Shown piece by piece: positions 4,651 to 41,453 of a stretch of 64,000 nucleotides of DNA. Both the position numbers and the translations under genes were made by a program. A model generated the notes under the pieces. That model made no database searches. It saw only the letters and a list, made by a program, of their open reading frames with translations, and was not told where the DNA came from. Each line of letters opens with the position of its first letter. Position 1 is the first letter of the stretch. Origin of the DNA: a candidate division FCPU426 bacterium (lineage in GTDB: Bacteria; Oederibacteriota; PGYV01; Palsa-1178); assembly GCA_963840035.1 (NCBI GenBank), contig CAWIXE010000002.1:512001-576000 (forward strand). Reading direction: 5' to 3'.

Positions 4651-4676
4651 TAACTCGATTCAGAAAAGCAATTGAT

Positions 4677-4795
4677 CCTTTAAACTGGCCCTGCGAGGCT
4701 GGTAAGGAGCTGGTACTTGTCCGCCGGAGCGTAATATGCGAAAGTGGATTAACGCCTTCTTACTGCGTACGCATGGCAGAAAGAGGGCTTTTTTT
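4677..4795 (+). promoter_or_regulatory. PyrR-binding RNA hairpin and attenuator terminator
   Basis: CCTTTAAACTGGCCCTGCGAGGCTGGTAAGG matches the PyrR site consensus (CUUUAA plus RUCCnGnGAGGYU); terminator gccttctt...aagagggc-ttttttt at 4754-4795; precedes pyrR. Confidence 0.85.
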
Positions 4796-4850: not shown

Positions 4851-5402
4851 GTGGACAAAAAGCTTAAAATTAAGAGTGAAATCCTTGACAAACCTTCCAT
4901 TGAGCGGGCATTGACCCGTATTTCCCATGAAATAATCGAAAAAAACAAAGGCGCTAAGAATGTCTATATCGTGGGTATACGCTCACGGGGCGATGTTTTA
5001 GCAGCCCGTATCGCTAAAAAAATCAATGAAATAGAGAATGTGGCAGTGCCTGTGGGCGCTGTGGATATTACATTTTACCGGGACGACTATGACCGTGTCA
5101 CAAAAGCTGAAGTAAAATCAACCGAACTGCCCGTGTCAGTGGATGATAAGGATATAGTTCTGGTGGATGACGTGCTTTATACGGGCAGGTCCACGCGCGC
5201 TGCCATGGATGTCATCATCGAATTCGGCAGGCCAAAAACCATTCAACTGGCTGTTCTCATAGACCGCGGGCATAGGGAACTGCCAATACAAGCGAATTAC
5301 GTAGGTAAAAATGTGCCGACAAGTTCTGAAGAAATGATAGTTTTAAAGTTACAGGAATCTGACGGCGAAGAAAAAGTTCTTCTTGCCGAAAAGGAGGCGT
5401 AA
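4851..5402 (+). CDS. pyrR: Pyrimidine operon attenuation protein / uracil phosphoribosyltransferase
   Basis: [41 protein letters not shown] start after ggagg. Confidence 0.97.
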
Positions 5403-5403
5403 G

Positions 5404-6337
5404 ATGTCACTTAACCATCTTATTTCACTGCAGGATATTTCAGCCGAACAGATAACAGAGATTTTAAATCTTGCTAAAACTTTTAAGGAAGTAAATGAAC
5501 GGCAGGTAAAAAAACTTCCCACGCTTAAAGGCAAAACTGTCGCCAACTTTTTCTTCGAAAATTCCACCAGGACCAAAACTTCGTTTGAAATAGCGGCAAA
5601 GAGGCTCTCGGCAGATGTTCTTAACCTGGCGATATCCACATCCTCAGTGGCCAAGGGTGAAACCCTGATCGATACCATCCGCACTATTGAAGCCATGCAG
5701 ATAGACATCGTAGTAATCAGGCACGGCGTTTCAGGCGTGCCTCATATGTTAACCAGCAAAATATCCTCCCATATAATAAACGCCGGAGACGGCATGCACG
5801 AGCACCCTACGCAGGGGCTGCTGGATATGTTTACCATGAGGGACAAAAAGGGCCACCTGGAAGGATTGACCGTGGCTTTGGTTGGCGACATAGCGCACTC
5901 GCGCGTGGCGCGCTCGAACATATGGGGGCTGAAAAAGATGGGGGCGAAAGTACGCGTTGTCGGCCCGGCAACGTCTCATACCGCGCGACATAGAACAAAT
6001 GGGCGTGGAAGTCTATAATGACCTTGAAAAAGGCATCAAGGGCGCTGATGTGGTAAACATACTCAGGATACAGCTTGAAAGGATGAAAAAGCATCTCTTC
6101 CCGACAATCAGGGAATACGCCATGCTCTTCGGGGTCAATACCACAAAATTAAAAAGCGCGAAGCCGGACTGCCTTGTCATGCATCCGGGGCCGATGAACC
6201 GCGGCATAGAAATATCGCCGAACGTGGCTGACGGGCCGCAGTCGGTCATAGAAGAACAGGTGACAAACGGAGTGGCTGTGAGAATGGCTGTCCTGTATCT
6301 CATGGGAGGAGGCAAATCAAATGAAATTATTGATTAA
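5404..6337 (+). CDS. pyrB: Aspartate carbamoyltransferase catalytic subunit, split by a one-base insertion near 5974
   Basis: FFENSTRT and [10 protein letters not shown] in the first frame; RIQLER and MHPGPMNRG in the second; removing T5974 restores VGPAT-LIPR. Confidence 0.93.
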
Positions 6338-7598
6338 AAACGGCACGGTAGTCGATCCCGCCAATAAAAAAGAGGAAAAGGCCGACATTCTTATAAACAA
6401 CGGCAAAATAGAAAAGGTCGCGAAATCCATAACTGACAAGGACGCGCAGGTCATTGACGCCGCGGGCAGGACCGTGATGCCGGGTTTTCTCGACATGCAC
6501 GTGCATTTCCGCGAACCCGGTTTTGAGTATAAGGAAACCATAGAGTCAGGCTCGCGCGCCGCGGCAAAAGGCGGATTCACGACAGTCGCATGCATGCCGA
6601 ATACTGACCCGGTAATAGACAACCAGGCCATGGTTGAATTCATAAATATGAAATCAAAGCAGGTCGGTTTAATTGACGTCAAAGCCATAGGCGCTATAAC
6701 AAAAGGCAGGGCAGGGCTTGAACTTGCGCCGATAGGCGAACTTTTTAAAGCGGGAGCGGTCGCGATATCGGACGACGGCTGTACCGTAATGAACGCCGAG
6801 ATTGTAAGGCGGGCAATGCAATACTGCAAAATGTTCGGTATGACGCTTATAGAACATTGTGAAGATGTGAATCTGGCTGGCGATAATACCGTAAATGAAG
6901 GTTACTTCGGTACTATGCTCGGATTAAAGGGCATACCGGCGTCAGCTGAAGAGTCAATCGTTGCGCGCGATATTATGATAGCCAGGGATACGCAGGGACG
7001 GCTGCATCTGGCGCATCTGTCAACGGCAGGCGCGGTAGAGATACTAAGGTGGGCAAAAAAACAGGGCATAAACGTAACCGCTGAAGTAGCCCCGCATCAT
7101 TTTGCGCTGGACGATTCGAACTTAGTATCATATGACACAAATTATAAGATGAACCCGCCGCTGCGCTCAAAAGCGGACGTGGAAGCCATGAAAAAAGGCT
7201 TAAAAGACGGCACCATAGACGTAATAGCCACGGACCACGCCCCGCACGCTGAACTGGACAAAAACGTCGAGTGGAACCAGGCGGCTTACGGTATAATCGG
7301 CCTTGAGACTGCTTTTCCTTTAATAATAACAGAATTGGTCGGTCCGGGAGTGTTGACGATTTCAGAGGCGGTTGAAAAAATAACAATCAATCCGGCAAAG
7401 ATATTGAACCTCGATAGGGGCACGCTTTCAGAAGGCAAGGAAGCGGATGTTGTAATAGCGGACATAAATAAGGAGTTTGAGGTAACTGAAAAGTTCTTTG
7501 GTTCCCGTTCCACTAACTCGCCATTCATCGGGCGGAAGCTAAAAGGCAGCATTGAGTGTGTGATTAAATCGGGTAAGGTGGTTTATAGTGGAGAGTAA
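6321..7598 (+). CDS. pyrC: Dihydroorotase
   Basis: [25 protein letters not shown]; pyr operon context. Confidence 0.96.
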
Positions 7599-7602
7599 GT
7601 AG

Positions 7603-7630
7603 GTGGTAAGTGATATGTGGTATGTGGTAA
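7603..7630. repeat. Left heptamer arm (GTGNTAN family) flanking the four-helix-bundle gene
   Basis: gtggtaa gtgatat gtggtat gtggtaa. Confidence 0.85.
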
Positions 7631-7684
7631 GGGAAAACTAAAAATATGACAGGACGTTTGGGCTTGAAAAATGGGGGGGCGCAA

Positions 7685-8059
7685 ATGAATGTTGTTAAGA
7701 GTTTTGAGGACCTTGAAGTGTGGAAAAAAGCAATAGATATATCTGATCTTACACATGCAATTGTAGATGATTTTCCAAAGCAGGCGATATGGACGCTGGG
7801 TACGCAGATGTTAAGGTCTTCTGTTTCTATAGGATCAAACATTGCAGAAGGATGCGAGCGCCAGCATACGCCGGAATACATACAATTTTGTTATATTGCC
7901 CTGGGATCATGTGCGGAACTATATACACAACTTATAATTGCAAAAAGAAGAAAGTATCTGCCTGAGGAAAAATATGATCAGATATCAGAAATGATCCAGC
8001 ATGAACGAAGAATGTTGCTGAATTTAACAAAAAGCCTGAAATTAAGAAGAAAACAGTAA
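7685..8059 (+). CDS. Four-helix-bundle protein (23S rRNA intervening-sequence protein / Avd-like family)
   Basis: SFEDLEVWKKA, QMLRSSVSIGSNIAEG, IALGSCAELYTQL are typical of this family. Confidence 0.92.
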   Translation: MNVVKSFEDLEVWKKAIDISDLTHAIVDDFPKQAIWTLGTQMLRSSVSIGSNIAEGCERQHTPEYIQFCYIALGSCAELYTQLIIAKRRKYLPEEKYDQISEMIQHERRMLLNLTKSLKLRRKQ

Positions 8060-8079
8060 CGTAATAAAAGGTATGGCTG

Positions 8080-8107
8080 CTGGCACGTAGCACGTACCAC
8101 TTATCAC
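8080..8107. repeat. Right heptamer arm, inverted relative to 7603-7630
   Basis: ctggcac gtagcac gtaccac ttatcac (reverse complement of GTGNTAN units). Confidence 0.85.
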
Positions 8108-8142
8108 GTTCTTGTTTGAAACTAAGGAAACAAGGAGAACAT

Positions 8143-9288
8143 ATGAAAAAAGCAATGCTTATGCTTGAGGACGGCACGTGCTTTGAGGGCGTTTCTGCCG
8201 GCGCTGACGGGGAAACCTACGGCGAGATAGTTTTTAACACATCTATGATGGGTTATCAGGAAATTTTAACCGACCCTTCTTACCGCGGCCAGATTGTTAC
8301 CATGACTTACACGGAAATCGGCAATTACGGTATTAACGAGGATGACATAGAATCAGGAGAAGTGCAGGTCGAGGGTTTTGTTATGAAAGAGATAAGCAAA
8401 ATAAGGTCAAACTGGCGTTCGGGAATGACGCTGCAGGAATACCTGAGGAAGTATAAGATCGTCGCCATAGAAGGCATAGATACAAGGGCGTTGACCCGTC
8501 ATATCAGGGATTTTGGAGCCATGAAATCAGTGCTTTCAACAATTGACCTGAATAAAAAATCACTTCTAAAAAAAGTCAAGGCTTCCCAGTCCATAGTTGG
8601 TATTGACCTTGCAAAGGAAGTATCCACTAAGAGCCCTTATAAATGGAGCGAGAAGTTAAAGCCGGTCGGTATGATGGAAAAGGAATGCGACTATGTCAGG
8701 GTCGGGGTTAATAAGAAAAGGCTGAAAGTTGTGGCTTACGACTGCGGAATAAAGCACCACATACTGCGCATACTCGCGGACTTAAACTGCGAAGTGACGG
8801 TTGTGCCAATCACTGCCACAGCAGAGGAAGTATTAAGCTACAAACCGGACGGAATATTCATCTCAAACGGCCCGGGCGACCCGTCTGCTGTGCCTTATAT
8901 AGTGGAAGAACTCAAGAAACTGCTCGGAATAAAGCCGATATTCGGCATCTGCTTCGGCCACCAGTTGTTGGGCCAGGCTTTAGGAGGAGTTACCTACAAA
9001 TTGAAATTCGGACACAGAGGCGCGAACCATCCGGTAATGGCGATGGATACCAGGAAGATAGACATCACAGTTCAGAACCACGGTTTTGCTGTGGACCCCA
9101 AATCATTCAAAAAATCAAAGCATAAAGTTGAAATAACTCACATCAACCTGAACGACAGGACGGTAGAAGGTCTTGAAGTTAAAAAGCTGAAGGCCTTCTC
9201 TATACAGCATCATCCTGAAGCATCGGCAGGCCCACATGACGCACGGTATATCTTTAACAAATTCATAAAATATATGGCGAAAAACTAA
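8143..9288 (+). CDS. carA: Carbamoyl-phosphate synthase small subunit
   Basis: [42 protein letters not shown]; aaggag RBS. Confidence 0.97.
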
Positions 9289-12599: not shown

Positions 12600-12678
12600 G
12601 TAGGGGCGATTCACGAATCGCCCAAACGCTGACAATTTATACCGAAACCCTTGTAGGGGCGGCCCCGTGTGGCCGCCC
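12600..12678 (+). repeat. Two GTAG-type REP hairpins between carB and pyrK
   Basis: GTAGGGGCGATTCACGAATCGCCC (12600) and GTAGGGGCGGCCCCGTGTGGCCGCCC (12653). Confidence 0.85.
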
Positions 12679-12690
12679 GAAGGATGGACA

Positions 12691-13467
12691 ATGAAGTACA
12701 CAGGCAAAGTAACAAAAAACACAGAGATTGCTGAAAACATATGGAAAATGGAAATTTCCACAGGCAAGGTTTTTAAATCCAAACCGGGGCAGTTTATAAA
12801 CATCCTGGTCAATGATACCTATGAACCGCTTCTCAGGCGCCCGTTCTCGATTTACGACGCCACAAATAAGTCTGTTACGGTCGTGTATAAGGTCATAGGA
12901 CAGGGAACAAAAGCGATGACGGAAAAGAAACCTGGCAACAAACTCGATTTTATCGGACCGTTGGGTAACTCGTACCTGGACTTTAAATCACAAATCTCAA
13001 ATCCCAAATCCCAAATTGTAATTATCGGCGGCGGCACAGGCGCTGCTTCTACGTACTACCTCGCCAAATACCTCAAATCAAAGAAAATTAAATTCAAATT
13101 CATCCAGGGAGCACGCTGCAAATCTCAGATGGTAGCTGTCCCTGAATTTAAAAAAATCGGGTGTGTCTTTGCCACTGATGACGGTACTCTGGGGAAAAAG
13201 GGCTTTGTCAGCGATATTTTAAAAGATACACTTGAAGATGATTCAACAATATTCACGTGCGGGCCCAAGCCCATGTTTAAGGCAATAAAGACTGTAGCTG
13301 ACTCTAAAAACCGGGTAAAAGTATTCGCTTCGTTTGAGGAATATATGGGGTGTGGTATTGGCGCATGTGTGTCGTGCGTGGTGGAGATAAAAATGGGCGA
13401 TACGAATGAGTACAAGCGCGTCTGTAAAGACGGCACTATTTTTGACCTGAATGATGTGGCTTTTTAA
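12691..13467 (+). CDS. pyrK: Dihydroorotate dehydrogenase electron transfer subunit
   Basis: PGQF, LRRPFSI, GPLGN, CGPKPM and the MGCGIGACVSC...VCKDG 2Fe-2S motif. Confidence 0.94.
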   Translation: MKYTGKVTKNTEIAENIWKMEISTGKVFKSKPGQFINILVNDTYEPLLRRPFSIYDATNKSVTVVYKVIGQGTKAMTEKKPGNKLDFIGPLGNSYLDFKSQISNPKSQIVIIGGGTGAASTYYLAKYLKSKKIKFKFIQGARCKSQMVAVPEFKKIGCVFATDDGTLGKKGFVSDILKDTLEDDSTIFTCGPKPMFKAIKTVADSKNRVKVFASFEEYMGCGIGACVSCVVEIKMGDTNEYKRVCKDGTIFDLNDVAF

Positions 13468-30770: not shown

Positions 30771-32471
30771 ATGAACTGGCAGTATGCTGAAGAAAAGAAC
30801 ATAGACCCCATACTGAAGGCCGAACTAAAGGACAAGCTCCAGCTTCCTGATTATATTGTCACGGCCTTTATTAACCGCGGTATTGATTCATTTGACCGCG
30901 CCAGGGAAGTCTTTGAGATAGACAGCGCGCCGCTTTATCCGCCTTATCTTTTTGAGGATATGGAAAAAGCAGTATCAAGGATAGAAAAGGCCGTTAAATC
31001 AAATGAAAAGATAGTAATATACGGCGATTATGACGTGGATGGAGTGACCGCCATAGTGGTTCTGTTCCTTTTCTTTAAAAACTTTCTGAAATACACAAAT
31101 ATAGATTATTACATTCCCCACAGGCAGGACGAAGGTTACGGCCTGAATATCGACGCGCTGACAGCCATAAAAGCCGCGGGAGCAGGCCTTATTATTTCGG
31201 TGGATTGCGGCATATCGGCCAAAAAAGAAGTGGAATTCTGTTCGGTTAACAATATGGATATCATTATAACAGACCATCACATACCTGAAGGCGAAACTAC
31301 GCCTGATAAAGCATTTGCTATAATCAACCCGAAATTATCCAAAAAATACCCGGAGAGAGAACTATCTGGCGCAGGGGTGGCGTATAAACTCCTTTGCGCG
31401 CTTGCCGACAGGTTCAAGATAGACATTAAAAATGAATTCCTTGATTTTGTGGCTCTTGGGACTGTGGCGGATATTGTTCCGCTTACATATGAGAACAGGA
31501 TACTGGCGCGCAGGGGTTTTAAACAGATAGAAAAAACCACAAATATTGGGCTGAAGAAGCTTAAGGAAGTGGCGGGAATAAAGACGGACGCGCGCATATC
31601 GACATACCACGTGGGATTTATCCTCGGCCCCAGGATCAACGCCGCAGGCAGACTGGAGCACGCTAAAAAGGCGGTGGAACTTTTTGTCTCGGATGACGCG
31701 GAACTTGTGGAAACCATAGCGCGCGAGCTTAATGAGACAAACGAAGAGCGCAAAAGCGTCATGAATAAAACACACGAAGAAGCGGTTAAAATGTTAAAAG
31801 ACGGTTATAACCCGGAAGAGGATTTTGTCATAATATTATATGATTCACTGTGGAACGCGGGAATAGTGGGGTTGGTAGCTTCAAAAGTGGTAAGGTCCTT
31901 TAACAGGCCCGCATTTATTCTGACAAAAAGCGATGATGGGCTTATTCATGGCAGCGCCAGAAGCGTGCATTCTGTAAATATTTTTGAGGCAATCAAATCA
32001 GCCCATAGCCACCTGGAGCGCTACGGCGGGCATAAGCTTGCCGCCGGCATCACCATGAAAGAGGCCAATTTAAACGGTTTTAAGGGCGCGGTTAACGCAT
32101 ACCTTAAGAAGACTTTTAAAAAAGAGGATTTTGAGCCGGTATTAAAGATTGACTGCATGATAAACGAACCGTTAAGCCTGCGGGATATAAAGATATTTGA
32201 CAAGCTCCAGCCGTGGGGAGAAGGCAACCCCAAGCCTGTTTTTTCGTTAAATGAAGTGGAAGTAAGGGAAGTAAAACTGATGAAAAGCAACACGATGAAA
32301 TTTTACGGAAAGGTTAAGGACAAATTCTATAATTTCCTGCTGTTCGGATATACCGAAGAACAGGCGGATGACATCAAACCGGGACATATATTTGACGTGG
32401 CATTTACGCCTACCATAAATGTATGGAAGGACGAGGAATCGCTTATTCTGGAAGTGCAGGATATTAAATAG
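30771..32471 (+). CDS. recJ: Single-stranded DNA exonuclease RecJ
   Basis: YGDYDVDG, VDCG, TDHH, GPRINAAGR, GGH motifs. Confidence 0.96.
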   Translation: MNWQYAEEKNIDPILKAELKDKLQLPDYIVTAFINRGIDSFDRAREVFEIDSAPLYPPYLFEDMEKAVSRIEKAVKSNEKIVIYGDYDVDGVTAIVVLFLFFKNFLKYTNIDYYIPHRQDEGYGLNIDALTAIKAAGAGLIISVDCGISAKKEVEFCSVNNMDIIITDHHIPEGETTPDKAFAIINPKLSKKYPERELSGAGVAYKLLCALADRFKIDIKNEFLDFVALGTVADIVPLTYENRILARRGFKQIEKTTNIGLKKLKEVAGIKTDARISTYHVGFILGPRINAAGRLEHAKKAVELFVSDDAELVETIARELNETNEERKSVMNKTHEEAVKMLKDGYNPEEDFVIILYDSLWNAGIVGLVASKVVRSFNRPAFILTKSDDGLIHGSARSVHSVNIFEAIKSAHSHLERYGGHKLAAGITMKEANLNGFKGAVNAYLKKTFKKEDFEPVLKIDCMINEPLSLRDIKIFDKLQPWGEGNPKPVFSLNEVEVREVKLMKSNTMKFYGKVKDKFYNFLLFGYTEEQADDIKPGHIFDVAFTPTINVWKDEESLILEVQDIK

Positions 32472-32558
32472 TGGCGAGTGATGTGTGATATGTGATAAGT
32501 GAGGGCTTAAAACCGGATATTGAAATTCACTTTTCACATAGCACGCGCCACCCGGCAC
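32471..32558. repeat. Inverted pair of heptamer arrays (GTGNNNN family), no gene inside
   Basis: gtggcga gtgatgt gtgatat gtgataa gtgaggg / aattcac ttttcac atagcac gcgccac ccggcac. Confidence 0.8.
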
Positions 32559-33700: not shown

Positions 33701-33726
33701 GTTGTTATTGATTGGTTCTAGTTTTC

Positions 33727-33904
33727 GTAGGGGCGAGCCGGTGGCTCGCCCGGCTTTTGACCGGTCCAAACCAGGATCTAAAGCCGGGCGAGCCACCGGC
33801 TCGCCCCTACGAGGGCAAAGCATTACAGAACAAAGCCAGGCTGGATTTGTCTTGTTTTCGCAGGAGCGAGTCCTGCTTCGCTGGACATGGCCGGTGGCTC
33901 GCCC
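33727..33904. repeat. Three REPs (forward, reverse, interrupted forward)
   Basis: 33727-33751, 33786-33810 (reverse) and 33860-33904 carrying a 20-bp insert. Confidence 0.88.
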
Positions 33905-33941
33905 GGGTTTAGATTTAGAACAAAGATATAGAGGGGTCTAT

Positions 33942-34508
33942 ATGGAAAACAAGGGAAAAATGCCGGACCGCAGGTCTGTCCGTTTGCGTGGTTATGATTA
34001 CTCTCAGGCCGGGGCGTATTATGTCACGGTTTGTGTTGAAAGCCGCAGGTGTGTTTTATCAATGATTGATAACGCGGAAAGCAACCTTAATGACTACGGG
34101 GAAGCTGTAAGGGATGAAATATTGAAAACACCGCAAATCAGAACAAACATTATAATCGATGAATTTGTTATCATGCCGAACCACTTCCACTTAATCATAA
34201 TAATTAACTCTGAAAAAGGCGTCATACTGCCCGGTGTTATTAATAGTTATTCGCCCGAAAAGATGCCGTTTGAGCTTAATAAAGACTCGCTTGGCGCGGT
34301 AATGGCGCAAATTAAATCAATAACAACCAAGAAGATACGAAAACTTGGCTTAAAGGATTTTGAATGGCAGAGAGGATATTATGAACACGTTGTTAGGGAT
34401 GAAGAGGATTTGATGGTTAAAAAGGAGTATATAGTTAACAATCCACTACAGTGGGAGCTGGATGATTACAATCCGCATAATAAAAAGACAAAGGCAGAAA
34501 ACCCTTAA
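33942..34508 (+). mobile_element. REP-associated tyrosine transposase (RAYT, Y1/HUH family)
   Basis: RRSVRLRGYDYSQAGAYYVTVC, HUH motif MPNHFHLI, WQRGYYEHVVR, YIVNNP; REPs on both sides; upstream ORF extension is translated REP DNA. Confidence 0.92.
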
Positions 34509-34523
34509 AACAAACCAAAGGCC

Positions 34524-34632
34524 GGGCGAGCCACCGGCTCGCCCCTACGAAAACAAAACTTGGCAAAGCAAGGCAAAACTAAGTAAGGGTTGATTTGTCT
34601 TGTCTTCGTAGGGGCGAGCCGGTGGCTCGCCC
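34524..34632. repeat. Inverted REP pair downstream of RAYT
   Basis: Reverse REP 34524-34548 and forward REP 34608-34632. Confidence 0.9.
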
Positions 34633-34645
34633 GGTTTTAGATTTA

Positions 34646-40363: not shown

Positions 40364-40440
40364 GTGATAAGTGATATGTGCTAAGTGGTATGTGAAAGAT
40401 GAAGCGGTACACATATCACATACCACACACCACATAGCAC
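40364..40440. repeat. Inverted pair of heptamer arrays (GTGNTAN family), no gene inside
   Basis: gtgataa gtgatat gtgctaa gtggtat gtgaaag / atatcac ataccac acaccac atagcac. Confidence 0.88.
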
Positions 40441-41400: not shown

Positions 41401-41401
41401 C

Positions 41402-41436
41402 CCGGAATCCAGAATCTAGAATATAGAATCCGGAAT
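41402..41436. repeat. One-sided heptamer array (NNRGAAT)
   Basis: ccggaat ccagaat ctagaat atagaat ccggaat, right after the fabD stop. Confidence 0.8.
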
Positions 41437-41453
41437 AAATTTTGGAGGTAATC

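Follow-up and report, generated by a model that had tools for sequence, protein, structure and literature searches.

A four-helix-bundle gene between inverted heptad arms in the pyr operon of a candidate division FCPU426 bacterium, and its gene-less relatives

Between pyrC and carA of a candidate division FCPU426 bacterium, a gene for a four-helix-bundle protein stands between two inverted arrays of seven-base repeats. This armed gene is real and far beyond chance. We analyzed it within a 64,000-nt stretch of the genome (hereafter the window, meaning the whole of that stretch), and against the rest of the genome, its relatives, and homologous genes of other phyla. Our preferred reading, which we hold with a little less than even confidence, is that it represents the form with a gene in a family of likely mobile elements whose inverted arms have five triplets each, and that the predicted pentameric protein likely binds one triplet per subunit. 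Protein and repeats are tied together by a shared number: each arm has five repeats and relatives of the protein form five-part rings, which suggests that the protein reads the repeats.

Anatomy of the element and its protein

The upstream host gene is pyrC (dihydroorotase, 6321..7598 on the + strand, above the TIGR00857 cut-off), with its stop codon at 7596-7598. The first-pass annotation of this DNA had placed a left arm 4 nt beyond that stop codon, and this is what we find: the 5′ arm runs from 7603 to 7630 on the + strand, and all of its four heptads fit GTGNTAN (4/4). At the fifth triplet position, 7631-7633, GGG replaces GTG. The right arm had been described as four reverse-complement units, and four units are indeed present at 8080-8107 on the − strand, but the pattern GTGNTAN holds in only 3/4 of them, the innermost reading GTGCCAG, and the fifth triplet is missing. 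With four of five triplets on both arms, the pyrC-carA element may be decaying. Four GTG triplets at 7-nt spacing match 10 times in the window, always inside one of its six arms, and 0 times in 100 shuffles; a similar shuffle comparison gave 9 matches vs. 0.

Enclosed by the arms is the cargo gene (7685..8059, + strand), an intact frame of 124 aa with a GC content of 0.37, assigned to TIGR02436/PF05635 by profile scores and predicted structure. ATG 7685 is a likelier start than 7646, with a G-run at 7673..7679 (+ strand) as the likely ribosome-binding site of the gene, and 124 aa from this ATG is also the length of the database copy of the protein. Similar G-runs precede other TIGR02436 genes of the genome. 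No transposase is encoded inside the element, just as the annotation had stated. Neither an internal sigma-70 promoter nor a terminator was detected in 7400-8300, and an Rfam search returned no match at the element. Beyond the 3′ arm, and outside the element, a 9-bp hairpin is predicted at 8109..8136 (+ strand; z-score of the region −0.16), which overlaps most of the ribosome site of carA, the downstream host gene (8143..9288, + strand, above the TIGR01368 cut-off). Transcription of the pyr operon probably runs through the cassette, which would then stay in the message.

Among the other pyr genes, pyrB seems to be divided between two reading frames (ORFs 5383-6018 and 5957-6337), by a frameshift or an assembly error. 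A match to the PyrR binding site (RF00515) precedes pyrR at 4673-4795, its 46.7 bits lying below the gathering score of 54, and pyrK (12667-13467) includes an in-frame stretch resembling a translated heptamer array.

The cargo protein scores far above the cut-offs of its family (115.2 bits vs. 24 for TIGR02436 and 117.9 bits vs. 33.8 for PF05635), and a protein atlas search returned only this family. Its predicted structure has four helices (pLDDT 96) and fits 2GSC with an rmsd of 0.7 Å and a TM of 0.89; it also matches 2RLD. Both of these solved family structures contain five chains, and by analogy with them the cargo protein is a predicted homopentamer. The title of the Xcc0516 paper, as given in the reference list of PMC10053308, likewise speaks of five bundles. 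The kinship with Avd that the annotation had noted for this family is visible in the model, which matches Avd structures at TM 0.75-0.79 (4DWL, 0.79), at 11-12% identity. The Avd models themselves remain below cut-off for the cargo protein (NF033474, 21.4 vs. 80; PF22296, 24.8 vs. 40). In Avd, a bound RNA stem-loop is touched by all five protomers, with flipped bases held in the crevices between them (10.1101/2023.10.23.563531), and a specific stretch of ~30 nt is protected (PMC6182149).

Five triplets per arm and the gene-less pairs of the genome

The first reading overlooked that an arm holds five triplets, that is, four heptads plus a fifth triplet, spanning 31 nt. Among GTG-family runs in the genome, 33 have five triplets, compared to 6 with three, 11 with four, 2 with six, and 1 with fourteen, and each of 3 shuffled controls contained at most one run of three. 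When all triplets were counted at period 7 in intergenic DNA, we found 525 runs of four, 477 of five, and only 19 of six; the same intergenic count at periods 5, 6, 8, and 9 produced no comparable peak. In the ATT family, all five triplets are present in 56/60 5′ arms and 51/60 3′ arms, and across 23 relatives there are 456 five-ATT windows vs. 52 six-ATT windows. The triplets are near-invariant and the spacer positions vary widely, a combination that neutral decay does not fit. A simple sequence repeat made by slippage was considered and rejected, as the units are degenerate and the run counts reach their peak at five, then fall steeply at six. For homologues in other phyla, arms most often have four to five units but the tail is longer, six or more units occurring in 11/106 5′ arms and 26/106 3′ arms, and the ceiling of five is softer there than in this genome. 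At C2:654249-654346, one GTG-family arm has grown to 14 near-identical units, which we read as slippage on top of the five-unit design.

Gene-less pairs with GTG arms had been reported at two other places in the window, and both are present exactly as noted: one right behind recJ (32471..32558; hairpin z −4.2) and one in the fabH-fabD gap (40364..40440; hairpin z −4.1), each with five triplets per arm. Such empty pairs are predicted to fold as stable hairpins. Across the genome, period-7 arrays occupy 1002 regions vs. 32 in a block-shuffled genome, and inverted pairs of all units number 233. The GTG family comprises 22 inverted pairs, of which 21 have loops <50 nt and one, at pyrC-carA, encloses a gene. 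This agrees with the annotation, which had taken the latter to be the filled member of a larger element family. The loops are short and mutually unlike, with 3/18 matching the interior of the filled element at P < 0.05, uncorrected.

GTG elements also share a position relative to genes. By the calls of our own crude gene caller, 21/22 pairs start between −4 and +13 nt from a stop codon, most finish just ahead of a ribosome site, and 22/22 lie between co-directional genes, although the last is weak evidence because 2461/2792 gaps are co-directional anyway. Host gaps are short, with a median of 25 nt once the element is subtracted. Gaps of ≤60 nt contain 20/22 elements, and such gaps make up 973/2078 array-free gaps and 4.2% of their bases.

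The genome has eight matches to TIGR02436. Three of these genes carry inverted heptad arms, each of a different unit; besides the GTG-armed cargo gene, the genome has ATT-armed and GTT-armed genes (C1:780720, C1:786298). In two others arrays are confined to the upstream side, a further one is flanked by inverted repeats of longer period, and the last two show no arrays. The genome's unit clusters number ~17, compared to these three armed genes. By eye, no recurrent cargo other than the four-helix-bundle gene was seen among 24 long inverted pairs in the genome, and GxxExxY genes were not found in it.

Several other repeat-associated loci were noted along the way. A TIGR02436 gene at C2:219100-219950 lies within inverted repeats with a period of ~37-43 nt, not 7. 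At C2:827241-828428, an ATT-arm pair contains a mobile element that, from its translation, we take to be IS30-like, and two more copies of it are present in the genome. A second GTG family, with GTGGGTA-type arrays, consists mostly of solo arms, and its G-rich strand is the sense strand near a stop codon in 21/26 cases. A solo heptad array of another family directly follows the fabD stop codon (41401-41453).

Arm pairing, polarity, and gain at the junction

According to the first-pass annotation, the arms could pair in mRNA or single-stranded DNA and so loop out the gene. They are able to pair, at 23/28 positions and with −31.6 kcal/mol, but the outcome depends on context: a local fold gives a predicted pairing of 0.78, which drops to 0 in a naked RNA of 950 nt and recovers, to 0.78-0.81, only if pyrC and carA are constrained to stay single-stranded. 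The annotation's proposal amounts to an intervening sequence in mRNA, in which the arms pair, RNase III cuts the stem, the RNA of the gene is released, and the operon message is split. Family membership (TIGR02436/PF05635) is consistent with this, as are the RNase III encoded in the genome and the pairing predicted with unpaired flanks. A precedent exists in the Coxiella burnetii intervening sequence (23S rRNA helix 45, S23p), where RNase III cleaves a terminal stem of 28 bp, cutting at the first of the heptameric repeats that precede the S23p gene at the 5′ end (PMC4990558).

However, in addition to the context-dependent prediction, the arm stem contains a mismatch in 3/4 units, and selection for exact complementarity in the GTG family appears slight. 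Cognate GTG arms are 0.736 complementary vs. 0.716 for permuted arms (P = 0.078), and a higher cognate complementarity in 7/8 unit clusters was discounted because the clusters mix subfamilies. A cleavage stem under precise selection is hardly supported by these data. Cleavage would also leave the five triplets unexplained, and 0/189 homolog loci matched the 23S rRNA of this genome. We therefore consider an mRNA intervening sequence distinctly unlikely.

The arms are also polar relative to transcription. A purine excess in the 5′ arm was found in 19/22 GTG elements (P = 0.0002), and across 193 pairs of all families sense-strand G-U pairs outnumbered A-C pairs by 251 to 186 (P = 0.002). The latter bias is modest, and the GTG family alone does not have it (41 vs. 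42). Deviations from the triplet were counted at 7 vs. 5 in the two arms of the GTG family and 4 vs. 10 in the ATT family, meaning that both arms are about equally kept. Together, the polarity and pairing data favor a transcription-linked substrate, either single-stranded or hairpin, be it RNA or DNA. As neither the GTG nor the ATT family contains G-tracts, G-quadruplexes were rejected for both.

To place the junction in context, the carA search covered 41 genomes, of which 39 had a match, and 29 relatives' loci were read, none of them from the same genus. In 21/29 loci, pyrC adjoins carA, with gaps of 5-172 nt. The gene is absent from the relatives' pyrC-carA junctions, a homologue occurring at carA in 0/29 loci, in keeping with the annotation's reading of a mobile or intervening element. 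An empty, arms-only form was likewise not seen at this junction in relatives. In the six same-family genomes with a carA match, the gaps measure 32-53 nt and show no arms by eye. In one relative (L026, in G036), pyrC and carA are 153 nt apart, and the gap contains degenerate inverted repeats that follow another period. The base composition of the cargo gene is foreign, with a GC3 of 0.32 vs. 0.53-0.57 in pyrC, carA, and carB, and among the order's 24 analyzable TIGR02436 loci none besides the cargo gene itself exceeds 41% identity. At the fabH-fabD junction, 5/8 family genomes have GTG, ATT, or GTT arms by eye. Because the arm families differ, this one junction appears to have been filled repeatedly, which points to mobility.

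Placement behind stop codons could alternatively reflect a domesticated regulatory role resembling that of TRAP. The ring would bind the 5′ arm in mRNA, open the hairpin, and tune the translation or stability of the next gene, and the arms of its own gene would serve autoregulation. The close spacing to stop codons (≤13 nt in 21/22 elements), the ends just before ribosome sites, and the confinement of 20/22 elements to gaps of ≤60 nt are all consistent with such a role, as are the polarity, the slight G-U bias, and the stable hairpins of empty pairs. Yet the sites are not conserved, given that the pyrC-carA element is absent in relatives and that fabH-fabD carries other families or none. Moreover, in the part of the study drawn on here, a comparison of two media revealed no marked trend in the expression of repeat-associated Xanthomonas genes (PMC4692102). 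Regulation of this kind is in our judgment unlikely.

The usual marks of transposition were sought at the GTG elements and in the genome. No target-site duplication was apparent (mean best repeat 2.9 nt vs. 3.1 nt in permutations, P = 0.90), inverted repeats did not extend beyond the arms more than in permutations, and no relatives were detected among viral contigs with the patterns used. A reverse transcriptase (PF00078) was not found in the genome, which is 98% complete, and the 8 PF01797 Y1 transposase hits had no heptad arms beyond weak or distant arrays at 2 of them. With no PF00078, no target duplication, and no armed Y1 transposases, no mobilizing enzyme is in hand. Elsewhere in the window, at 33717-34635, a RAYT-like ORF (33942-34508) is flanked by inverted pairs of its own REP-type hairpins; it had no NCBIfam match at 1e-20 and is not among the 8 PF01797 hits.

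Under our preferred reading, in which a pentamer reads five triplets, the ring would bind arms that are either single-stranded or folded into a hairpin, most likely in the transcript or in a displaced strand. TRAP binds one triplet per subunit, and the cargo protein may do the same. By analogy with Avd and its reverse transcriptase, the ring would act as an adaptor, and an enzyme encoded elsewhere would cut and join. The gene-less pairs would then be non-autonomous members of the family, and insertion between a stop codon and a ribosome site would keep the operon working. Among the readings weighed here this is the best single account, and we rate its chances as just short of even.

Gene-arm association across bacteria and known systems

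The annotation had raised the prospect that four-helix-bundle genes are enriched for flanking heptamer arrays, and this association holds up. In a set from named genomes (79 homolog loci, 78 with full flanks, many of them kin within Verrucomicrobiota), both flanks were periodic in 46/78 loci vs. 0/74 distal controls, and arrays were clearly inverted in 34 of the 78. Adding metagenome and order loci brought the set to 189, of which 167 were analyzable; the closest homologues, at 59-69% identity, were not included. Three or more triplets were shared in inverted order in 106/167 loci and in direct order in 35/167. The 5′ arm triplets around these genes are most often GTG, AGT, or GTT, and the arm starts ≤30 nt from a sense stop codon in 73/98 loci. 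The gene-arm link thus crosses many phyla and many unit sequences. Protein and repeat similarity increase together only above ~60% protein identity, where co-inheritance accounts for the pattern as well as recognition does.

The association has exceptions, and these bear on another explanation: the arms may belong to a REPIN-like element that depends on a different host or mobile protein to be read and spread, in which case the gene would be a frequent cargo and the five-five match a coincidence or relic. Three relatives have arm families without a matching armed gene. G002 (98% complete, ~90 contigs) and G006 (86% complete) contain 136 and 108 five-ATT windows, respectively, yet neither has an ATT-armed gene among its six TIGR02436 hits. 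Similarly, G010 has GTG arms (3 strict matches, vs. 0 in 22 other relatives), yet its two genes carry other flanks. The total TIGR02436 count does not track the five-ATT count (Spearman 0.17, P = 0.44), and the equal upkeep of triplets in both arms is what binding sites on two DNA strands would show. By contrast, one TIGR02436 subfamily occurs in 9/11 relatives with at least 5 five-ATT windows vs. 1/12 without, although these kin are not independent and only some genes of the subfamily have ATT arms. This co-occurrence, the spread of the gene-arm link over phyla and units, and the lack of other recurrent cargo or GxxExxY genes in this genome argue against the gene being a mere passenger, an explanation to which we assign a low probability.

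Extended beyond this genome, the pentamer reading would describe a transposase-less class of mobile element found across bacterial phyla. A pentamer similar to Avd would count off the five triplets of its own arms while these are single-stranded, as RNA or DNA, and would steer new copies to sites following stop codons. Gene-less descendants of the class would account for heptamer repeats in many genomes, and the intervening sequences of 23S rRNA that contain an ORF would be copies that landed in rRNA. We offer this wider picture as a possibility that is, on balance, doubtful. The pentamer reading would join two long-unexplained things, namely a very large protein family that has solved pentamer structures but no function to go with them, and the surplus of 7-base repeats seen in genomes of bacteria. 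Were a need for five triplets of the protein's own kind borne out, the protein would be a modular nucleic-acid reader of a new sort, whose natural variants differ in specificity. Avd's role in retroelements would have a likely origin, and there would be a type of mobile element that homes in on the space following a stop codon.

Parts of this arrangement are already in print separately, in the heptamers of the Coxiella intervening sequence and the four-unit repeats of Xanthomonas. In the literature searched, with most subscription journals outside coverage, we did not find a paper linking PF05635 genes to inverted heptamer arms, and the parts of PMC4679880, PMC6006769, and PMC8700078 drawn on here make no such link. 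PF05635 genes have been reported inside cas operons (PMC3936711) and, in CPR bacteria, at scattered places within rRNA insertions (10.1101/2024.02.27.582315).

The 23S rRNA intervening sequences are alike in protein family, in complementary ends of ~28 nt around a gene, and in 5′ heptameric repeats. Unlike them, the pyrC-carA element sits in a protein-coding operon, with the genome's 23S gene elsewhere, and has fixed five-triplet arms and hundreds of gene-less relatives in the genome. The Coxiella paper also suggests, in the part drawn on, that the S23p protein is not made in vivo (PMC4990558).

In Xanthomonas, GGGAATC heptamers prefer four units and form inverted pairs (70 in Xcc). They occupy gaps between co-directional genes, where they are found on the sense strand close to stop codons, and were read as G-quadruplexes (Rehm et al. 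2015, PMC4692102). The likeness lies in the heptads, the inverted pairs, and the near-stop sites, whereas G-tracts are missing from the GTG and ATT families described here. One four-unit run is located 6 nt after bccP, where it overlaps the start of xcc0516 as annotated; no inverted partner is listed for it (PMC4692102, supplement 2). The gene with that upstream run, xcc0516, is the one whose product is the solved pentamer. No protein partner for the repeats is proposed in the parts of that paper covered. Intergenic TAACTGA heptamer runs of Beggiatoaceae, with 2-6 copies near gene boundaries, have been suggested as protein-binding sites (MacGregor 2015, PMC4679880). They are almost only direct, unlike the inverted arms described here, and the terms "helix bundle," "intervening," and "23S" are absent from the main text of that paper.

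Further parallels are found in REPIN/RAYT systems and in Avd. REPIN/RAYT systems (PMC6006769) share the layout of one gene per repeat family with many gene-less inverted doublets between genes, and the lack of a detectable target duplication at the GTG elements is a further likeness. Here, by contrast, the enclosed gene belongs to PF05635 and does not encode an HUH transposase, the loops are unrelated between copies, and the arms are degenerate tandem heptads instead of conserved GTAG- or CGTC-tagged hairpins. Avd shares the fold and the pentamer, and its sequence-specific RNA binding involves all five protomers. However, it binds one stem-loop (4DWL and 8UB7 being its structures) and not a heptad array, and the cargo protein is separated from it by the low identity and sub-threshold scores given above, in a genome where no reverse transcriptase was found. 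The element stands apart from both systems, and from rRNA intervening sequences, by the tests that define each of them; in its layout it resembles REPIN/RAYT, and in its fold it resembles Avd.
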